Counted from the stretch's first letter, positions 1 to 60,721 are shown. The stretch is DNA of 60,721 nucleotides from an uncultured Pseudomonadales bacterium (GCA_964392715.1 CAYMQI010000001.1:1-60721); one strand, 5' to 3'. Translations and numbers: made by a program. The notes: generated by a model not told the origin, from the sequence alone.

Positions 1-2
1 TA

Positions 3-1595
3 AGCGCCCAAGACCCGTTTATTACCGGCCTTATCGGCCTCTTTGCTAAAGTTAAACACTCAATACCCCTAAATATCCAATTACATAACGACTTTTTTAC
101 CAATCCCTATTGGCAGAGCGAATCGCTCCAAAACCGCCTGTTTTTTTTCTTGGGTCCGCTGGTGCTTAGGTTTGCCGACAGCGTCCGCGCCGTTAGTCCC
201 CGCATCGCCGCCCACCTTCATTCACACCTCTTGCCAAAAATTCCCTGTTGGATTATTCCCGTTCCGCCAGATAAAAAATTTCTTACTGTCAAACCTGCCC
301 GCCGCCGCCCAATCGATGTTATCGCCGTCGGTCGTCTCTCACCCCAGAAAAACTTTTCCGATTTATTGCGGGCCGTATCTTTGATTGTCAAAAAATTTCC
401 TCAAACCCAAGTCGTTATCGTCGGGTCCGGACCAGAACGGTCGTCGCTTGTTGCTCAAGTGGACAGTCTCCACCTTGAAGCCAACGTCACCTTTGTGGGT
501 GCCAAAAACCAGTCTCAAACCGCCAAACTCCTCTCAGAGTCCAAAATTTACCTATCTACTTCAAATTATGAAGGTAGCAGTATTTCTCTGATCGAAGCCA
601 TGCTTATTGGACTGCCCGCTGTCGTCACCAAAGTCAGTGGCAGTCAAACACTGATCAAGTCAGCCATTAACGGTTACTTGGTTATACCCGGAGATTTTCG
701 TAGCCTTGCCAAACATGTCAATAACATCCTCTCAGACAAACACCTCTACCGTCGCTTGGCTCGCGGCTCCGCCAGGTCTGGTCAACACTTTCTTAAAGTC
801 CACCCGGAAAGCGCCTGGACAAATTGTTTAATCGCTGCCGCGGCCAAAGACACGCTCACCAAGTCCATGAAGCGGGCCAACATTACCCATTACGACCACA
901 ATCAATCAGAAATAGCCAAGTCCACAAATCACGCGAGCAAGTTAATTTATTATCCCCAAATGGTCTCTTTTGCCGCCAACTATCTTGATTTACAAGATAC
1001 CCTCATCGACATTGGTGGCGGGGCCGGCGTCTTAACCTCGCTAATCGCCGCCAAGATCCCCGACCTTAAAATTATTGGTTTAGACATATCAAAACTAATG
1101 TGCCAATCACGCATCAAAGTTGGCCTGACCGACAATCTTGTCGGGGACATGGACCGTCTGCCGATCCTCTCCAACTCAGCTGACGCAGTAATTTTTATTG
1201 CTTCCATCCATCACACCCTCAACACCGATTTGGCAATTCAGGAAGCCTACCGGATCCTCAAACCCGGTGGACGGGTGATTCTCCTTGAGCACAATTCTTT
1301 TCGCTATCTTTTCCAACTGCAGCAAACCCGTGCCATTCCCGCCCCCAACGACTCAAGAGAATGCCTGATCAATCACCACTTAATTACCCATCAACTCCAA
1401 TCTTTCGGTTTTATCATTCTTCATGATTCGGTTCATCGTCAACTGGTCAGTCTCGTCGAAATGTTTTGGAAACAAATACCCCTGCCTTTTTATCGGTTGC
1501 TTACCCTCATCGATCGGGCCACAAATAACCTTCCCCTTTACAAAGAGCTTGGCAACTTAAGTTTCACCGTTGCCCTCAAACCGTTCACCCAATAA
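3..1595 (+). CDS. Two-domain protein with its 5' end outside the window: GT4 (group 1) glycosyltransferase fused to a class I SAM-dependent methyltransferase
   Basis: The frame of ORF 150..1595 stays open back to nt 3 (SAQDPFITGLIGLFAKVKHS...), so the gene starts upstream of the window. GT-B C-terminal half: VIAVGRLSPQKNF, VVIVGSGPE, NYEGSSISLIEAMLIGLPAVVT. Second domain: LIDIGGGAGVL (SAM motif I), ADAVIFIASIHH, LKPGGRVILLE. Confidence 0.8.
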   Translation, partial: SAQDPFITGLIGLFAKVKHSIPLNIQLHNDFFTNPYWQSESLQNRLFFFLGPLVLRFADSVRAVSPRIAAHLHSHLLPKIPCWIIPVPPDKKFLTVKPARRRPIDVIAVGRLSPQKNFSDLLRAVSLIVKKFPQTQVVIVGSGPERSSLVAQVDSLHLEANVTFVGAKNQSQTAKLLSESKIYLSTSNYEGSSISLIEAMLIGLPAVVTKVSGSQTLIKSAINGYLVIPGDFRSLAKHVNNILSDKHLYRRLARGSARSGQHFLKVHPESAWTNCLIAAAAKDTLTKSMKRANITHYDHNQSEIAKSTNHASKLIYYPQMVSFAANYLDLQDTLIDIGGGAGVLTSLIAAKIPDLKIIGLDISKLMCQSRIKVGLTDNLVGDMDRLPILSNSADAVIFIASIHHTLNTDLAIQEAYRILKPGGRVILLEHNSFRYLFQLQQTRAIPAPNDSRECLINHHLITHQLQSFGFIILHDSVHRQLVSLVEMFWKQIPLPFYRLLTLIDRATNNLPLYKELGNLSFTVALKPFTQ

Positions 1596-1600
1596 CACCC

Positions 1601-3400
1601 ATGCCCTATCTAGTTGGTCTAATTACTATTGGCTTGTCATTAACCGATAAACTCTCATTTTTTCGGATTTTGTTTGGTCATTTGTTTATCTTAATTTTTG
1701 CCGGCTGGCCGCTTGCCGGCCGCATCTTTAAATCCTCCAGTGTAATTGACCGCCTTCTCAGTTCCTCACTCATCTCCATCCTCCTTACTTATCCGGCCAC
1801 CGTGCTCGTCGCCCTAGTCGAAGGCAAATCAGGCCAAGCCATCTTTTCTCCCCACCTTACCACCTCATTATTCATCTTACTATCTATCAGTTGGTTATCG
1901 GCGTTCATCGCGCCCAAAAAAATTTCACACCCTCCAACTTTCCCCCCAAAACCAACGATTTCTTTGACTCAGCCCTTGTTGTTTTCCCTTTTTATTTTTT
2001 CTTTTTTTTCGTTTACCAAGCTCGGCTACGCCAACGTCTATGGGGACGAATACGATTTGGGCTACCAAGCCTACAATCTTGTCGACGGCATTCAAGCCGG
2101 TCGCAACGCCTATCTGCTTTCCTACAGTGGCCATCCTCCGCTAACCATGTCTTTAAAACACTATTCTCTCAACTTACTCGAACCAAAAGGGTTAGATCAT
2201 CTCTCCGATTGGCACTTCCGTTTTTCCGAAGCCCTTCTCGGATTATTAACTCTTGTGGCCGTGTTTGCCTTAAGCTCACAATTTTTTTCAACCAAAGTCG
2301 CCAATCTTGCAGTCTTAATTTTAGCCACTAACAATTATTTCATTTGGCTCGGGCGCATTTTTCACCGCGAAATGCTCCTTACCTTCCTACTAACTCTTAC
2401 CGTTTACTATTTTTTCAAGGTCACCAAAGCAAAGAGACTATATTTGTTTGCCGGTCTGTCACTTGGGGCTGCCCTGCTGGTCAAGGAAACGGCCCTAGTT
2501 CTTATGCCGACGCTGTTGTTACTAACCCCCAGGAAACAGCTATCCAGGCCATTCTTGATTGCCTTCTTGATCTTCTTGCCGGTGGTCCTCTACAACATTT
2601 TGGCTTTTCTGGTCACCGGTTATGCCGACGTGTTTTTCTCAAATCTTTTTGGCGTCTATCGGCCCGGCGCCACTCCCCGAGATGATCTAAATCTACTTCC
2701 CCAAATAATTTCCATCGCCACTTACTTGATTGATCTGTTTTCACCTCTTGTCCTCCTTGCCCTCACCGCCTCAGTGGTGTTTTCCCTAAAAGACAACAAA
2801 GCCCGACCGCTTATTGCCTGGATAGTTATAACTCTACTTTTTTTCTTACTCACCGCCGTTCGGGGTTATTATTTTGTCATTCTGGCCATACCCCTAGTTA
2901 TCATCACCGCCAGAAGATTGACCGCTCTGCCTCGAATTTTTACCTCCGCCATCGCCGTCACCATTGTCCTTTTATCCTCTTTTTATTCATTCAACACCCA
3001 CATTCGTCGCCAAGATACCGTCTTGGACGAACCTAGAAATATAGACGGAAGTGTCTTTGTTCCCGTCTCCTGGAACCAAACCAAATCAAGCGTAGCCATT
3101 GGCTGGGCATACAATCACGGCTGGCTACAACTCCTTAAGGCCCTAGCCTCTCTGCCCCCTGAGTCCTCCTGTGTCACCGTCGACGACTCTCTCAACTCGC
3201 TTGCGGTTCGTCGCTACCTCTCTCTCAACGACGACATCAAAGCTTATTACCTGGGAAAATACCCTTCTCGTTTTCCCCGATGTCTCCCCAACTCAGATGG
3301 TGTTTTGGTAAGTAAAAAACACTTGACCTCTCCCGTCCTTAGCACCATCAGCGACTCGCGCCTTACCCCCCAGTTTTTCCTCTACCATTTTTCTCCCTAA
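1601..3400 (+). CDS. Polytopic membrane glycosyltransferase, GT-C fold (ArnT/PMT-like)
   Basis: 599 aa with more than 10 hydrophobic segments, an acidic loop motif (YANVYGDEYDLGYQAYN) and a soluble C-terminal domain. Starts 5 nt after the upstream stop. Confidence 0.65.
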   Translation: MPYLVGLITIGLSLTDKLSFFRILFGHLFILIFAGWPLAGRIFKSSSVIDRLLSSSLISILLTYPATVLVALVEGKSGQAIFSPHLTTSLFILLSISWLSAFIAPKKISHPPTFPPKPTISLTQPLLFSLFIFSFFSFTKLGYANVYGDEYDLGYQAYNLVDGIQAGRNAYLLSYSGHPPLTMSLKHYSLNLLEPKGLDHLSDWHFRFSEALLGLLTLVAVFALSSQFFSTKVANLAVLILATNNYFIWLGRIFHREMLLTFLLTLTVYYFFKVTKAKRLYLFAGLSLGAALLVKETALVLMPTLLLLTPRKQLSRPFLIAFLIFLPVVLYNILAFLVTGYADVFFSNLFGVYRPGATPRDDLNLLPQIISIATYLIDLFSPLVLLALTASVVFSLKDNKARPLIAWIVITLLFFLLTAVRGYYFVILAIPLVIITARRLTALPRIFTSAIAVTIVLLSSFYSFNTHIRRQDTVLDEPRNIDGSVFVPVSWNQTKSSVAIGWAYNHGWLQLLKALASLPPESSCVTVDDSLNSLAVRRYLSLNDDIKAYYLGKYPSRFPRCLPNSDGVLVSKKHLTSPVLSTISDSRLTPQFFLYHFSP

Positions 3401-3417
3401 AGGCTAAACTGTAGGCT

Positions 3418-59891: not shown

Positions 59892-59958
59892 TTGGTTAGA
59901 TGGTCAAATGGTCCTCTGGTTATGCTAAAACCATTAAACCATGTAACCACATAGCCAT
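59892..59958. repeat. Inverted pair of 8-nt periodic arrays: 4 x YTGGTY, a 7-nt spacer, then 4 x ARCCAY
   Basis: Left arm: ttggtt 59892, atggtc 59900, atggtc 59908, ctggtt 59916. Right arm: aaccat 59929, aaccat 59937, aaccac 59945, agccat 59953. Lies between the stop at 59887 and the recO ATG at 59963. Confidence 0.85.
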
Positions 59959-59962
59959 TTTT

Positions 59963-60514
59963 ATGTCTCACACTTTCTCCCTCGAAGCCATCGTTTTAAA
60001 ACGCCATAATTTCGCCGAAGCCGACCGTTTTATCACCGTTTATTCCAGGCAGCAAGGCAAGGTTTCCGCCCTGGCCAAAGGCGTCAGGAAACTCACCTCC
60101 AGAAAGCGCGCCGCCCTGGAGCCCGGCAACCACGTCAAACTCATGTTGGCCAAGGGACACACTACCCCCATCGTCACCGAAGCCGTCATCATCAACTCCT
60201 TTGCCCCCGCCAAAGGCAACCTCTCCCGCATCACCCAAACTTACCAACTCCTCGAAATCATCGATCACCTCACGGTCGAGGACGAATCCCACCCCCAAGT
60301 TTTTTACCTTCTCAAAAACTCCCTTTCCGCTCTCGAACAAGGCGGCTCCAAAAAAACCATGCTCCTTGAAAACATTCGCCTTATTCTCAAAGAGCTAGGC
60401 TTTACTCACGACAAACAATTCTCTGAAACCAGCCTCAAAGACTACATCGAATCCCTGGCGGAAAAAAAACTAAGGACCAAAGAATACTTCACCACCGATT
60501 TGTCTCTCGGGTAA
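59963..60514 (+). CDS. recO: DNA repair protein RecO (short form)
   Basis: MSHTFSLEAIVLKRHNFAEADRFITVYSRQQGKVSALAKGVRKLTSRKRAALEPGNHVKL is a typical RecO OB-fold N-terminus. The 21 codons before ATG 59963 in the ORF track are just a translation of the repeat array. Confidence 0.75.
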   Translation: MSHTFSLEAIVLKRHNFAEADRFITVYSRQQGKVSALAKGVRKLTSRKRAALEPGNHVKLMLAKGHTTPIVTEAVIINSFAPAKGNLSRITQTYQLLEIIDHLTVEDESHPQVFYLLKNSLSALEQGGSKKTMLLENIRLILKELGFTHDKQFSETSLKDYIESLAEKKLRTKEYFTTDLSLG

Positions 60515-60721
60515 TGACGCCCCCTCCTTGGATCCATATCATACAAACGTCAAAATACGCTAATCGGTTTCTGCACCCAGGAAATTGTGAGATCTACCGC
60601 CAGAGTACTACAGGATCTCATCCTCACCTGGAAGCCGATCGCTCCATACGGAAAGGCGAACTTCGGACTACACACCCCATACATATCAACAACCGATAGT
60701 TATTGCAATATAATCATTTTG

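Follow-up and report, generated by a model that had tools for sequence, protein, structure and literature searches.

The stretch of DNA analysed here (the window; all 60,721 nt) is an ordinary sample of a chromosome-wide disparity between G and C that is found in part of the order UBA1400 (Microgenomatia, Patescibacteria/CPR). Skew of this kind has been known since 2020, and we here add a further family (f1), in which the effect is about the strongest. The account that we consider probable is one in which the usual contributions of gene orientation and replichore to base composition are joined by a larger, constant term that is likely mutational.

The + strand of the window contains 18,563 C and 10,338 G, next to 15,465 A and 16,355 T, corresponding to a GC skew of −0.285 and an AT skew of −0.028. 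Two features frame this analysis:

1..60721, no strand: whole window; + strand C-rich and G-poor (skew −0.285) without A/T disparity, a sample of a genome-wide property
8362..21682, no strand: lower-GC block (40% GC); skew −0.288, compared with −0.284 for the remaining window

The asymmetry was pervasive: skew ranged from −0.16 to −0.41 in 59 of 59 sliding 2-kb windows, C exceeded G in 902 of the 1,012 60-nt tiles, and non-coding DNA had a skew of −0.28. An earlier note on this DNA had proposed that the + strand is C-rich in + and − genes alike, and indeed, among ORFs encoding 100 aa or more, all 50 (37 in + and 13 in − orientation) had a top-strand skew of the same sign (−0.14 to −0.49), tying the skew to the physical rather than the coding strand. 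As the note also held, third positions end in C in + genes and in G in − genes; coding-strand third-position skew was −0.51 and +0.40, respectively, so that the top strand is C-rich under both orientations. Its six spot counts were exact (6/6), and our ORF-based recount (37/50) reproduced the proportion of its 41 of 55 genes on the + strand. The note had restricted the disparity to DNA outside the low-GC block, where the skew is indeed present and G and C are far from equal (−0.284), but the exemption was unnecessary, as the block is skewed like the remaining window. A recent origin of the block from a donor without skew can therefore be dismissed.

Beyond the window, the genome is a 100-contig draft, a metagenome bin with scaffold gaps. 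Gene calls are longest-ORF proxies. Over the contig set, which the note had named as a check, we found 91% of the 1.13-Mb assembly in contigs with an absolute skew of at least 0.2, with nearly all contigs between 0.2 and 0.47, and just one internal sign switch (contig C16). The classical sign switch at dnaA was not found on contig C44 of this genome: on the dnaA-coding strand, skew was +0.43 upstream, +0.45 within and +0.43 downstream of the gene. Likewise, three genomes of the same family (G001–G003) had a skew of 0.33–0.46 at both flanks of dnaA. In contrast to the classical rule that the leading strand is G-rich and gene-rich and carries the ribosomal-protein operons, with which the note had seen a clash, 60% of ORFs genome-wide (560 vs 378 by strand) and rplB were on the C-rich strand, and dnaA was on the G-rich strand. 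The orientation-adjusted C:G ratio at 4-fold sites was 4.5:1 genome-wide. Recently acquired mobile DNA lacks the offset, as contig C13 (integrase, Replic_Relax, T4 coupling protein and restriction–modification genes) had a skew of about 0.

Whichever of the four flanking-gene configurations it lay in, intergenic DNA had a GC skew of about −0.3 and an AT skew of −0.02 to +0.05 (−0.02 to +0.03 in G000). Observed/expected dinucleotide ratios of 0.75–1.23 made the asymmetry nearly context-independent. The offset looks like a separate, motif-independent process confined to G and C. Since skew at 4-fold sites (about 0.64) was double that of intergenic DNA (about 0.31), there is room for a selective or context component.

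Kadnikov et al. (Microorganisms 2020; PMC7143001) were the first to report whole-chromosome G/C disparity in UBA1400, for 'Ca. Chazhemtobacterium aquaticus' Ch65, Ca. Collierbacteria and Ca. Beckwithbacteria. The best named matches of DnaA were Microgenomates MAGs, and the window's genome shares its order with published genomes included in our comparison, namely G036 (Ch65; CP047901), G017 (MFAS01000001), G005 (CP011210) and G054. Our recomputed composition of Ch65 (G 14.97, C 29.83, A 27.87, T 27.33) equals the published values. Like these three published lineages, with which it shares the GTDB order, the window's genome has a strand on which C outnumbers G roughly two to one whatever the gene orientation; as in published UBA1400 genomes, A/T disparity is absent and nothing flips at dnaA. 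Genes are split almost evenly between strands in both cases (60:40 here; 54:46 in Ch65, 449 vs 389 genes; PMC7143001), and skew in the window's family is as strong as in Ch65. The published genomes, however, fall into other families (f19, f15 and f3), and unlike the closed Ch65, the genome studied here is a draft, for which monotonic skew round the circle is presumed by analogy with its relatives.

The offset also shapes proteins, because it reaches first and second codon positions, so that genes on opposite strands encode proteins of differing amino-acid make-up. Genome-wide, genes on the G-rich strand encoded more Met (2.53%, against 1.13% for the C-rich strand), Glu (7.43% against 4.07%), Val (10.0% against 5.8%), Trp (1.76% against 1.02%) and Gly (9.3% against 6.1%), and less His (1.40% against 2.62%), Thr (4.15% against 7.34%) and Pro (3.56% against 5.57%). 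Within the window, the same contrast separates paralogues:

3418..5253, + strand: AsnB-type asparagine synthase, on the C-rich strand; G+V+W+M+R+E 23.1%, P+T+H+Q 17.5%
18855..20783, − strand: AsnB paralogue, on the G-rich strand; G+V+W+M+R+E 33.8%, P+T+H+Q 9.8%
28813..30189, − strand: PMT_2 (GT-C) glycosyltransferase, on the G-rich strand; G+V+W+M+R+E 37.6%
1601..3400, + strand: PMT_2 GT-C, on the C-rich strand; G+V+W+M+R+E 18.7%
35646..37157, + strand: PMT_2 GT-C, on the C-rich strand; G+V+W+M+R+E 18.7%
41841..43352, + strand: PMT_2 GT-C, on the C-rich strand; G+V+W+M+R+E 18.3%
49927..51393, + strand: PMT_2/PMT GT-C, on the C-rich strand; G+V+W+M+R+E 21.1%

The note's observation that composition flips with orientation among paralogues is borne out by these figures, within the window and genome-wide. 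The two AsnB proteins are 31% identical, and the bias of their differing columns is as predicted by the skew. Coding frames and Pfam domains were intact on both strands.

The comparison with relatives covered four closed genomes and 40 dnaA regions. C exceeded G in 792 of 800 2-kb windows of Ch65, and G017, G005 and G034 had one skew sign throughout all sampled blocks (for three of the four closed genomes, sampling reached only 37–44%). Neither the window's genome nor any offset relative changed sign across dnaA, and dnaA was always encoded by the G-rich strand; in conventional relatives, skew at dnaA flips from about −0.1 to about +0.1. Offset polarity was thus always tied to the orientation of dnaA, as a dominant fork running from dnaA to dnaN would also give.

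Beneath this constant sign, ordinary replichore signals persist. In G017, G005 and G034, rplB and the 16S gene were directed away from dnaA, on opposite strands and sides, and in each of the four closed genomes 61–65% of coding base pairs were co-oriented under an a priori partition ([dnaA, dnaA+L/2); p 0.006–0.08, combined z 4.07), while a gene-orientation permutation test with a scanned partition was not significant by itself. Orientation-adjusted 4-fold logit(C/G) jumped at the pole opposite dnaA in 4/4 closed genomes and at dnaA in 3/4; the best unconstrained change-points of the positional term did not fall exactly at either site, and in Ch65 some 60 kb separated dnaA from the strongest local step. 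For the offset genomes taken together, the step at dnaA was 0.24 (bootstrap 0.15–0.32), compared with 0.23 (0.17–0.31) in 20 conventional relatives. Given the steps at dnaA and the opposite pole and the orientation of rRNA operons, ribosomal-protein operons and coding DNA away from dnaA, replication in the closed offset relatives looks bidirectional. The constant term, by comparison, amounted to 0.32 in weak, 1.01 in mid and 1.81 in strong families (−0.03 in conventional ones), 4–8 times the ordinary replication term, with 4-fold C:G ratios across families from about 1.4:1 to about 6:1. The presumed leading strand of the four closed relatives is C-rich in the replichore with the ribosomal-protein operon and G-rich in the other.

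Where sites are free to vary, composition in offset genomes adds up from three independent terms: the usual effect of gene orientation (transcription or codon usage); the usual replichore effect, whose sign changes at an origin next to dnaA and once more at the opposite pole; and a much larger constant (C:G 2–5:1 at neutral sites), by which the dnaA-coding strand is G-rich and its complement C-rich around the whole chromosome. What is new with respect to Kadnikov et al. (2020) is this combination of a constant, an orientation term and a dnaA step of normal size, seen across the closed relatives and the 40 dnaA regions. The constant is G/C-specific, near context-independent, missing from mobile DNA and graded between families, and for these reasons it is most likely mutational; fork direction does not appear to be its cause. 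A strand-asymmetric G:C to C:G/T:A transversion process might produce it, a guess to which we attach little confidence; guanine could, for example, be lost or miscoded on one strand, and the intrinsic orientation of the origin/dnaA region would set the polarity. No mechanism is known by which one strand of a whole bacterial chromosome is singled out regardless of the directions of fork and transcription. Tentatively, then, and with a little less than even confidence, we suggest that the constant may be a third kind of bacterial strand asymmetry, independent of fork and transcription, specific to G and C, fixed to one physical strand, anchored at the origin and laid over bidirectional replication. 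If so, its strength could be tuned at least five-fold from one sister family to another, and some process would 'know' Watson from Crick around an entire bacterial chromosome.

Kadnikov et al. (2020) proposed mostly unidirectional replication (PMC7143001), from which our interpretation departs, since reanalysis of the published genomes speaks against it. A fork running from dnaA towards dnaN and copying the chromosome wholly or for the most part would make the dnaA-coding strand leading everywhere, and G-rich through the ordinary mechanism, with the two-armed gene orientation as a relic; the monotonic skew of closed genomes (PMC7143001) and the encoding of dnaA by the G-rich strand in every offset genome agree with this, and the residual step could come from a minority of bidirectional rounds. 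However, merely 40–48% of genes would be co-directional with such a fork, the ribosomal-protein operon, located on the C-rich strand in 5/5 genomes examined, would be head-on in all of them, and the co-orientation of rRNA and ribosomal-protein operons expected of a single fork was not found in G017, G005 and G034, where they lie on opposite strands and one is head-on regardless. Moreover, the dnaA step is undiminished despite a constant several times its size, which would require intrinsic asymmetry and two-way fraction to co-vary with their product fixed, and there is the discontinuity opposite dnaA. One-way replication therefore looks unlikely. The earlier note had instead offered a choice between a locus transcribed head-on to replication and an inverted skew. 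Both options assume that skew sign marks leading and lagging strands, but a sign that is constant across dnaA and round closed relatives is not diagnostic of either, and the mechanism underlying the usual rule is not inverted, as ordinary leading-strand G-enrichment is still there as a small step. That the C-rich strand is lagging, with the glycan locus and most of the genome transcribed against replication, would fit the 60% of ORFs on that strand and the position of dnaA on the other; given a sign that never changes round the closed relatives and the consistent placement of ribosomal-protein operons on the C-rich strand, we regard it as very improbable. By analogy with the closed relatives, the window, where the C-rich strand holds ~75% of coding DNA, would most likely be transcribed co-directionally with replication.

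A rare second process that keeps one specific strand of the whole chromosome single-stranded or otherwise vulnerable for long (copying by rolling circle or strand displacement, conjugation-like transfer that starts at a fixed nick, or break-induced replication) would be a mechanism within our preferred three-term account more than a full rival to it. It would account for a constant on top of an unchanged replichore step, for polarity anchored at one site and for strength graded between lineages, and the bin contains conjugation-type genes (Replic_Relax and T4 coupling protein). These genes, however, reside on the unskewed mobile element C13 rather than the chromosome, cytosine deamination, the main effect expected of such exposure, should have left the exposed strand G- and T-rich although intergenic DNA has no A/T asymmetry, and a sawtooth gradient was not consistently better than a symmetric one across genomes, so that we rate this possibility as quite low. 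Selection, be it for codon usage, for an oriented motif present in many copies or for the structure of RNA or DNA, draws on the stronger skew of 4-fold sites, yet the asymmetry is equal in both gene orientations and all intergenic configurations, is nearly context-independent and is missing from mobile DNA, and it distorts amino-acid usage of paralogues in a manner that looks like a cost rather than a benefit; selection in place of mutation is accordingly highly unlikely. Finally, the assembly is fragmented and gapped, as would suit an artefact of assembly, binning or sequencing chemistry, but symmetric read errors cannot give duplex sequence a strand skew, reading frames and domains are intact, and the property recurs in independently produced genomes of other studies, including a closed one assembled with MinION reads according to its authors. 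An artefact is scarcely credible.

Several known systems invite comparison. Classical replication-associated GC skew (Lobry 1996) and its cumulative diagrams (Grigoriev 1998), as cited in PMC7143001 and PMC7111523, share with the closed relatives a slight G-enrichment of the leading strand of normal size that switches at dnaA and the opposite pole; they differ in that the dominant term here does not switch sign at origin or terminus and leaves half of the chromosome with a C-rich leading strand. Pseudoalteromonas chromids are large replicons that replicate unidirectionally (Xie et al., mBio 2021, PMC7858055). Their cumulative GC skew is likewise monotonic over the whole circle, whereas here the replicon is the main and only chromosome, bears dnaA, and appears to have two replichores, judging from how its genes and its rRNA and ribosomal-protein operons are oriented and from the skew steps that persist. 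In vertebrate mitochondrial DNA, the heavy strand is rich in G and T, which is attributed to deamination of the displaced single strand. Our genomes resemble it in a genome-wide, orientation-independent GC skew of ~0.3 that affects protein composition, but the coupled G/C and A/T asymmetry of mitochondria was not found in intergenic DNA, where A and T are symmetric. The bias in Borrelia burgdorferi distinguishes the leading from the lagging strand and so reverses at the origin, unlike that described here, which follows the physical strand throughout; as in this and other strongly skewed bacteria, codons and amino acids differ measurably by strand.

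On its + strand, the window comprises 15,465 A, 18,563 C, 10,338 G and 16,355 T, so that its GC skew is −0.285 and its AT skew −0.028. The GC skew was negative in all 2-kb sliding windows (range −0.16 to −0.41), and C outnumbered G in 902 of 1,012 tiles of 60 nt. The longest ORFs that do not overlap one another (≥100 aa) served as gene proxies; 37 lie on the + and 13 on the − strand. The top strand was C-rich over each of these 50 ORFs (skew −0.14 to −0.49), the coding-strand skew at third positions was −0.51 for + and +0.40 for − genes, and the non-coding DNA had a skew of −0.28. 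The strand bias thus has one sign in ORFs of both orientations and between them, bearing out the claim of an earlier note that it tracks the physical rather than the coding strand; the six spot base counts behind that claim were all exact, and neither a near-equality of G and C nor a skew following the coding strand, the observations named there as speaking against it, was found. The lower-GC block at 8362–21682, read elsewhere as laterally acquired, carries the full host bias (−0.288, versus −0.284 in the remainder); if it was acquired, either the transfer is old or the donor was a relative with a similar bias whose DNA entered in the matching orientation.

The bias extends throughout the draft assembly of the host (1.13 Mb in 100 contigs, estimated 94.5% complete). 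Nearly all contigs had an absolute skew of 0.2–0.47, those at or above 0.2 hold 91% of the bases, and the skewed DNA carries 560 ORFs on the C-rich and 378 on the G-rich strand. The dnaA gene (C44:3466–4833, − strand), followed by a probable dnaN, is encoded on the G-rich strand, and the skew is unchanged across it; rplB lies on the C-rich strand. Among the few contigs of low skew and lower GC is C13 (22 kb, skew near zero), which encodes a tyrosine integrase, Replic_Relax, a VirD4/TraG-like coupling protein, two Eco57I-type R-M methylases, an OLD-family ATPase-nuclease and a P-type ATPase, and which resembles an integrative/conjugative or plasmid-like element still free of the host's strand bias. 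Further low-GC (0.34–0.46), low-skew patches and contigs (C10:19–26 kb, C46:1–4 kb, C7:30–32.5 kb, C42, C60, C88 and C99) may represent recent acquisitions or slight contamination of the bin. The sole sharp internal sign switch, from +0.25 to −0.30 within ~100 bp, occurs at ~10,935–11,048 of C16. A recent inversion or a misjoin in the assembly could account for this switch, and the junction contains no Ns; we rejected an origin or terminus, as the switch sits in the divergent gap that separates a GT4 glycosyltransferase gene from a methyltransferase gene inside another glycan cluster and has no dnaA. As to structural RNAs, an Rfam scan of the window returned 0 matches. In the 16S rRNA gene on C77 (16–1322 and 1997–2084), model positions 927–1369 stretch over 1,307 nt, implying an insertion of ~860 nt, with a second gap before the 3′ end; such insertions are typical of CPR rRNA introns.

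A disparity of this kind has been described in the closed 801,504-bp genome of ‘Ca. Chazhemtobacterium aquaticus’ (Ch65), where C makes up 29.83% and G 14.97% of one strand along its whole length, with A and T showing no such disparity (Kadnikov et al. 2020, PMC7143001). [quoted passage not shown] The same disparity was reported in weaker form for Collierbacteria and Beckwithbacteria and as absent from family PJMF01 (PMC7143001). The host of the window is likewise a member of the order UBA1400, in a family (f1) outside those covered by that study; the disparity is therefore confirmed as a known kind of feature, here in a new family. Our literature search found no later paper taking it up. The ‘rolling circle’ skew patterns of Chen et al. 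2020 (Table S7) were set aside as a different phenomenon, the table listing isolate genomes only, with no CPR among them.

Across the dnaA regions of 40 UBA1400 genomes from 19 families, ten families displayed a conventional flip at dnaA (about −0.1 to +0.1), while the remaining ones had a skew offset whose sign was the same upstream and downstream of dnaA. Without exception, dnaA in offset genomes was encoded on the G-rich strand.

Strength of the one-sign offset in UBA1400 families
Weak offset, ~0.1–0.2: f9, f14
Medium offset, 0.15–0.38: f15, f3, f17, f4
Strong offset, 0.33–0.46: f19, f1 (family of the window)

In a DnaA tree, f9, f19 and f15 formed a supported clade, and f1 and the other offset families were scattered over a poorly supported backbone. 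Several origins and repeated losses of the offset are both compatible with this single-gene tree; given its weak backbone and the compositional effect on DnaA itself, we set it aside for counting origins of the trait. With families graded from none through weak and medium to strong in one order, UBA1400 constitutes a natural comparative system for finding the responsible process.

To separate the components of the disparity, we used logistic regression of C versus G at 4-fold degenerate sites in four closed relatives from the same order: Ch65, a collierbacterium, a beckwithbacterium and one further genome. Three terms—a constant, gene orientation and replichore—were distinguished. The constant was 1.66 on the logit scale in Ch65 (C:G 5.3:1) and 0.67–0.92 in the other three (2–2.5:1), compared with 1.50 (4.5:1) in the host of the window; the gene-orientation term was 0.33–0.46. 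None of the shapes fitted to the positional term (square, triangle, sinusoid, sawtooth) was consistently best, and we therefore relied only on the discontinuities at the two poles: all four closed genomes showed a jump in the decile profile at the pole opposite dnaA (by +0.12 to +0.46), and three a drop at dnaA. We further analyzed the ±10 kb flanking dnaA, pooling offset genomes with genome-specific constants and, for comparison, 20 conventional relatives. The replichore step at dnaA was 0.24 (bootstrap 0.15–0.32) in offset genomes, positive in 14 of 18, versus 0.23 (0.17–0.31) in conventional ones, and the constant around dnaA was −0.03 in conventional, 0.32 in weak, 1.01 in medium and 1.81 in strong families. 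The offset genomes thus retain a normal signal at the origin, onto which the offset is superimposed as an additive term 4–8 times larger. Once orientation and replichore were removed, the constant was highest near dnaA and lowest shortly before the opposite pole in the four closed genomes, and its sharpest local change in Ch65 fell at ~150 kb, 60 kb from dnaA.

The only published explanation of the disparity is one-way replication, which is in keeping with the uniform sign of the skew: C exceeds G in 792 of 800 2-kb windows of Ch65, the exceptions being the rRNA operon and one 3-kb patch, and a single sign held in all sampled blocks of the other three closed genomes (sampled at 37–44%). Yet this model appears inconsistent with the very genomes it was based on, because a one-way fork would meet the ribosomal-protein operons and 52–60% of genes head-on, and the proportion of two-way rounds would have to vary with the intrinsic asymmetry in such a way as to keep their product constant. 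Gene arrangement instead follows two arms. In the four closed genomes, rplB lies 100–120 kb away from dnaA. The 16S rRNA gene of three of them lies 170–200 kb away in the other direction and on the opposite strand, so that both genes point away from dnaA, while in Ch65 the two share an arm and a strand. A scanned best partition of gene orientation was, by itself, not significant against run permutations, and we used an a priori partition anchored at dnaA ([dnaA, dnaA + half chromosome)) instead. Under this partition, 61–65% of coding bases per closed genome were co-oriented (run-permutation p = 0.006, 0.013, 0.016 and 0.077; combined z 4.07), and the best gene-orientation axis fell within −0.075 to +0.10 chromosome lengths of dnaA. 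The chromosomes of offset genomes thus look to be still bidirectionally replicated—the main addition of this analysis—and, this being so, the G/C disparity needs a cause other than fork direction. If the offset is truly independent of the fork, an unknown process would tell apart the two strands of a whole chromosome.

For the window, it follows that the sign of the skew is uninformative on leading versus lagging strand. The earlier interpretation, with its choice between a locus transcribed head-on to replication and an inverted skew, is partly supported: the attribution to the physical strand stands, and the reading of strand roles from the sign of the skew does not. In the closed relatives, regions with genes mostly on the C-rich strand correspond to the arm that lies upstream of dnaA and includes the ribosomal-protein operon, where the C-rich strand is presumed to be the leading one. 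In the window, the C-rich strand carries 75% of the coding bases, and the orientation-adjusted constant is below average (1.21 versus 1.50 genome-wide); by analogy with these relatives, the window probably fits this arm and would be transcribed co-directionally with replication. Across contigs of the host assembly, the adjusted constant varied with coding-strand fraction in the predicted direction (1.50 versus 1.73), with a null rank correlation. In practical terms, GC skew is unusable in this clade for locating origins and termini, for calling leading and lagging strands and for checking assemblies; cumulative skew is properly monotonic here, and such a curve is no sign of misassembly.

As to its nature, the asymmetry is one of G versus C only. 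In Ch65 and the host assembly, intergenic GC skew was about −0.3 in all four configurations of flanking genes, with an AT skew of −0.02 to +0.05; a small chromosome-wide A/T offset at 4-fold sites was not reproduced in intergenic DNA and was dropped as evidence. Simple cytosine deamination on an exposed strand, which should also yield T>A, does not fit. By established chemistry, a pure G/C asymmetry would imply strand-asymmetric transversions, for instance through oxidised-guanine miscoding or abasic-site bypass. Dinucleotide observed/expected ratios of 0.75–1.23 indicate near independence of context, which rules out a cause in some oriented repeat or motif. In both genomes, 4-fold sites were about twice as skewed as intergenic DNA (equivalent skew ~0.64–0.68 versus ~0.31), a difference that a purely mutational bias acting on neutral intergenic DNA leaves unexplained.

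We also compared gene content between 20 offset and 21 conventional UBA1400 genomes. Offset and conventional genomes were not discriminated by MutS (absent from 36 of the 41, in both kinds of family), the patchily distributed HhH-GPD glycosylases, the single DnaE-type polymerase present in all 41 or a Y-family polymerase (18/20 offset, 13/21 conventional). The sole association concerned a low-scoring UDG class (62–71 bits), present in 15 of 20 offset and none of 21 conventional genomes, the conventional families carrying a higher-scoring type instead. Two of these copies, in the host (C14:13384–14046, +) and in Ch65 (~110,176–110,835, +), are canonical family-1 Ung (TIGR00628, 280–285 bits); the other 13 were assigned by score class only. 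As family-1 Ung is widespread among bacteria whose skew is ordinary, we read it as a shared lineage marker rather than a cause; its distribution raises the possibility of a closer relationship among the offset families than the DnaA tree conveys.

The earlier note had further held that protein composition flips with gene orientation, and this proved true both genome-wide and among paralogues in the window. Residue usage on the two strands of the host genome differed as the codon table predicts.

Residue usage in the host assembly: 352 ORFs on the G-rich versus 527 on the C-rich strand
Met: 2.53% in G-strand genes, 1.13% in C-strand genes
Glu: 7.43% in G-strand genes, 4.07% in C-strand genes
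Val: 10.0% in G-strand genes, 5.8% in C-strand genes
Trp: 1.76% in G-strand genes, 1.02% in C-strand genes
Gly: 9.3% in G-strand genes, 6.1% in C-strand genes
His: 1.40% in G-strand genes, 2.62% in C-strand genes
Thr: 4.15% in G-strand genes, 7.34% in C-strand genes
Pro: 3.56% in G-strand genes, 5.57% in C-strand genes

Such strand-dependent amino-acid usage is expected to distort phylogenies, homology scores and composition-based binning of genomes from this clade. Within the window, G, V, W, M, R and E together make up 37.6% of the sole − strand PMT_2 GT-C enzyme versus 18.3–21.1% of the four on the + strand. For two AsnB-type asparagine synthases encoded on opposite strands, the corresponding values are 33.8% and 23.1%, and substitutions at the differing aligned columns of this pair were biased in the same direction as overall composition.
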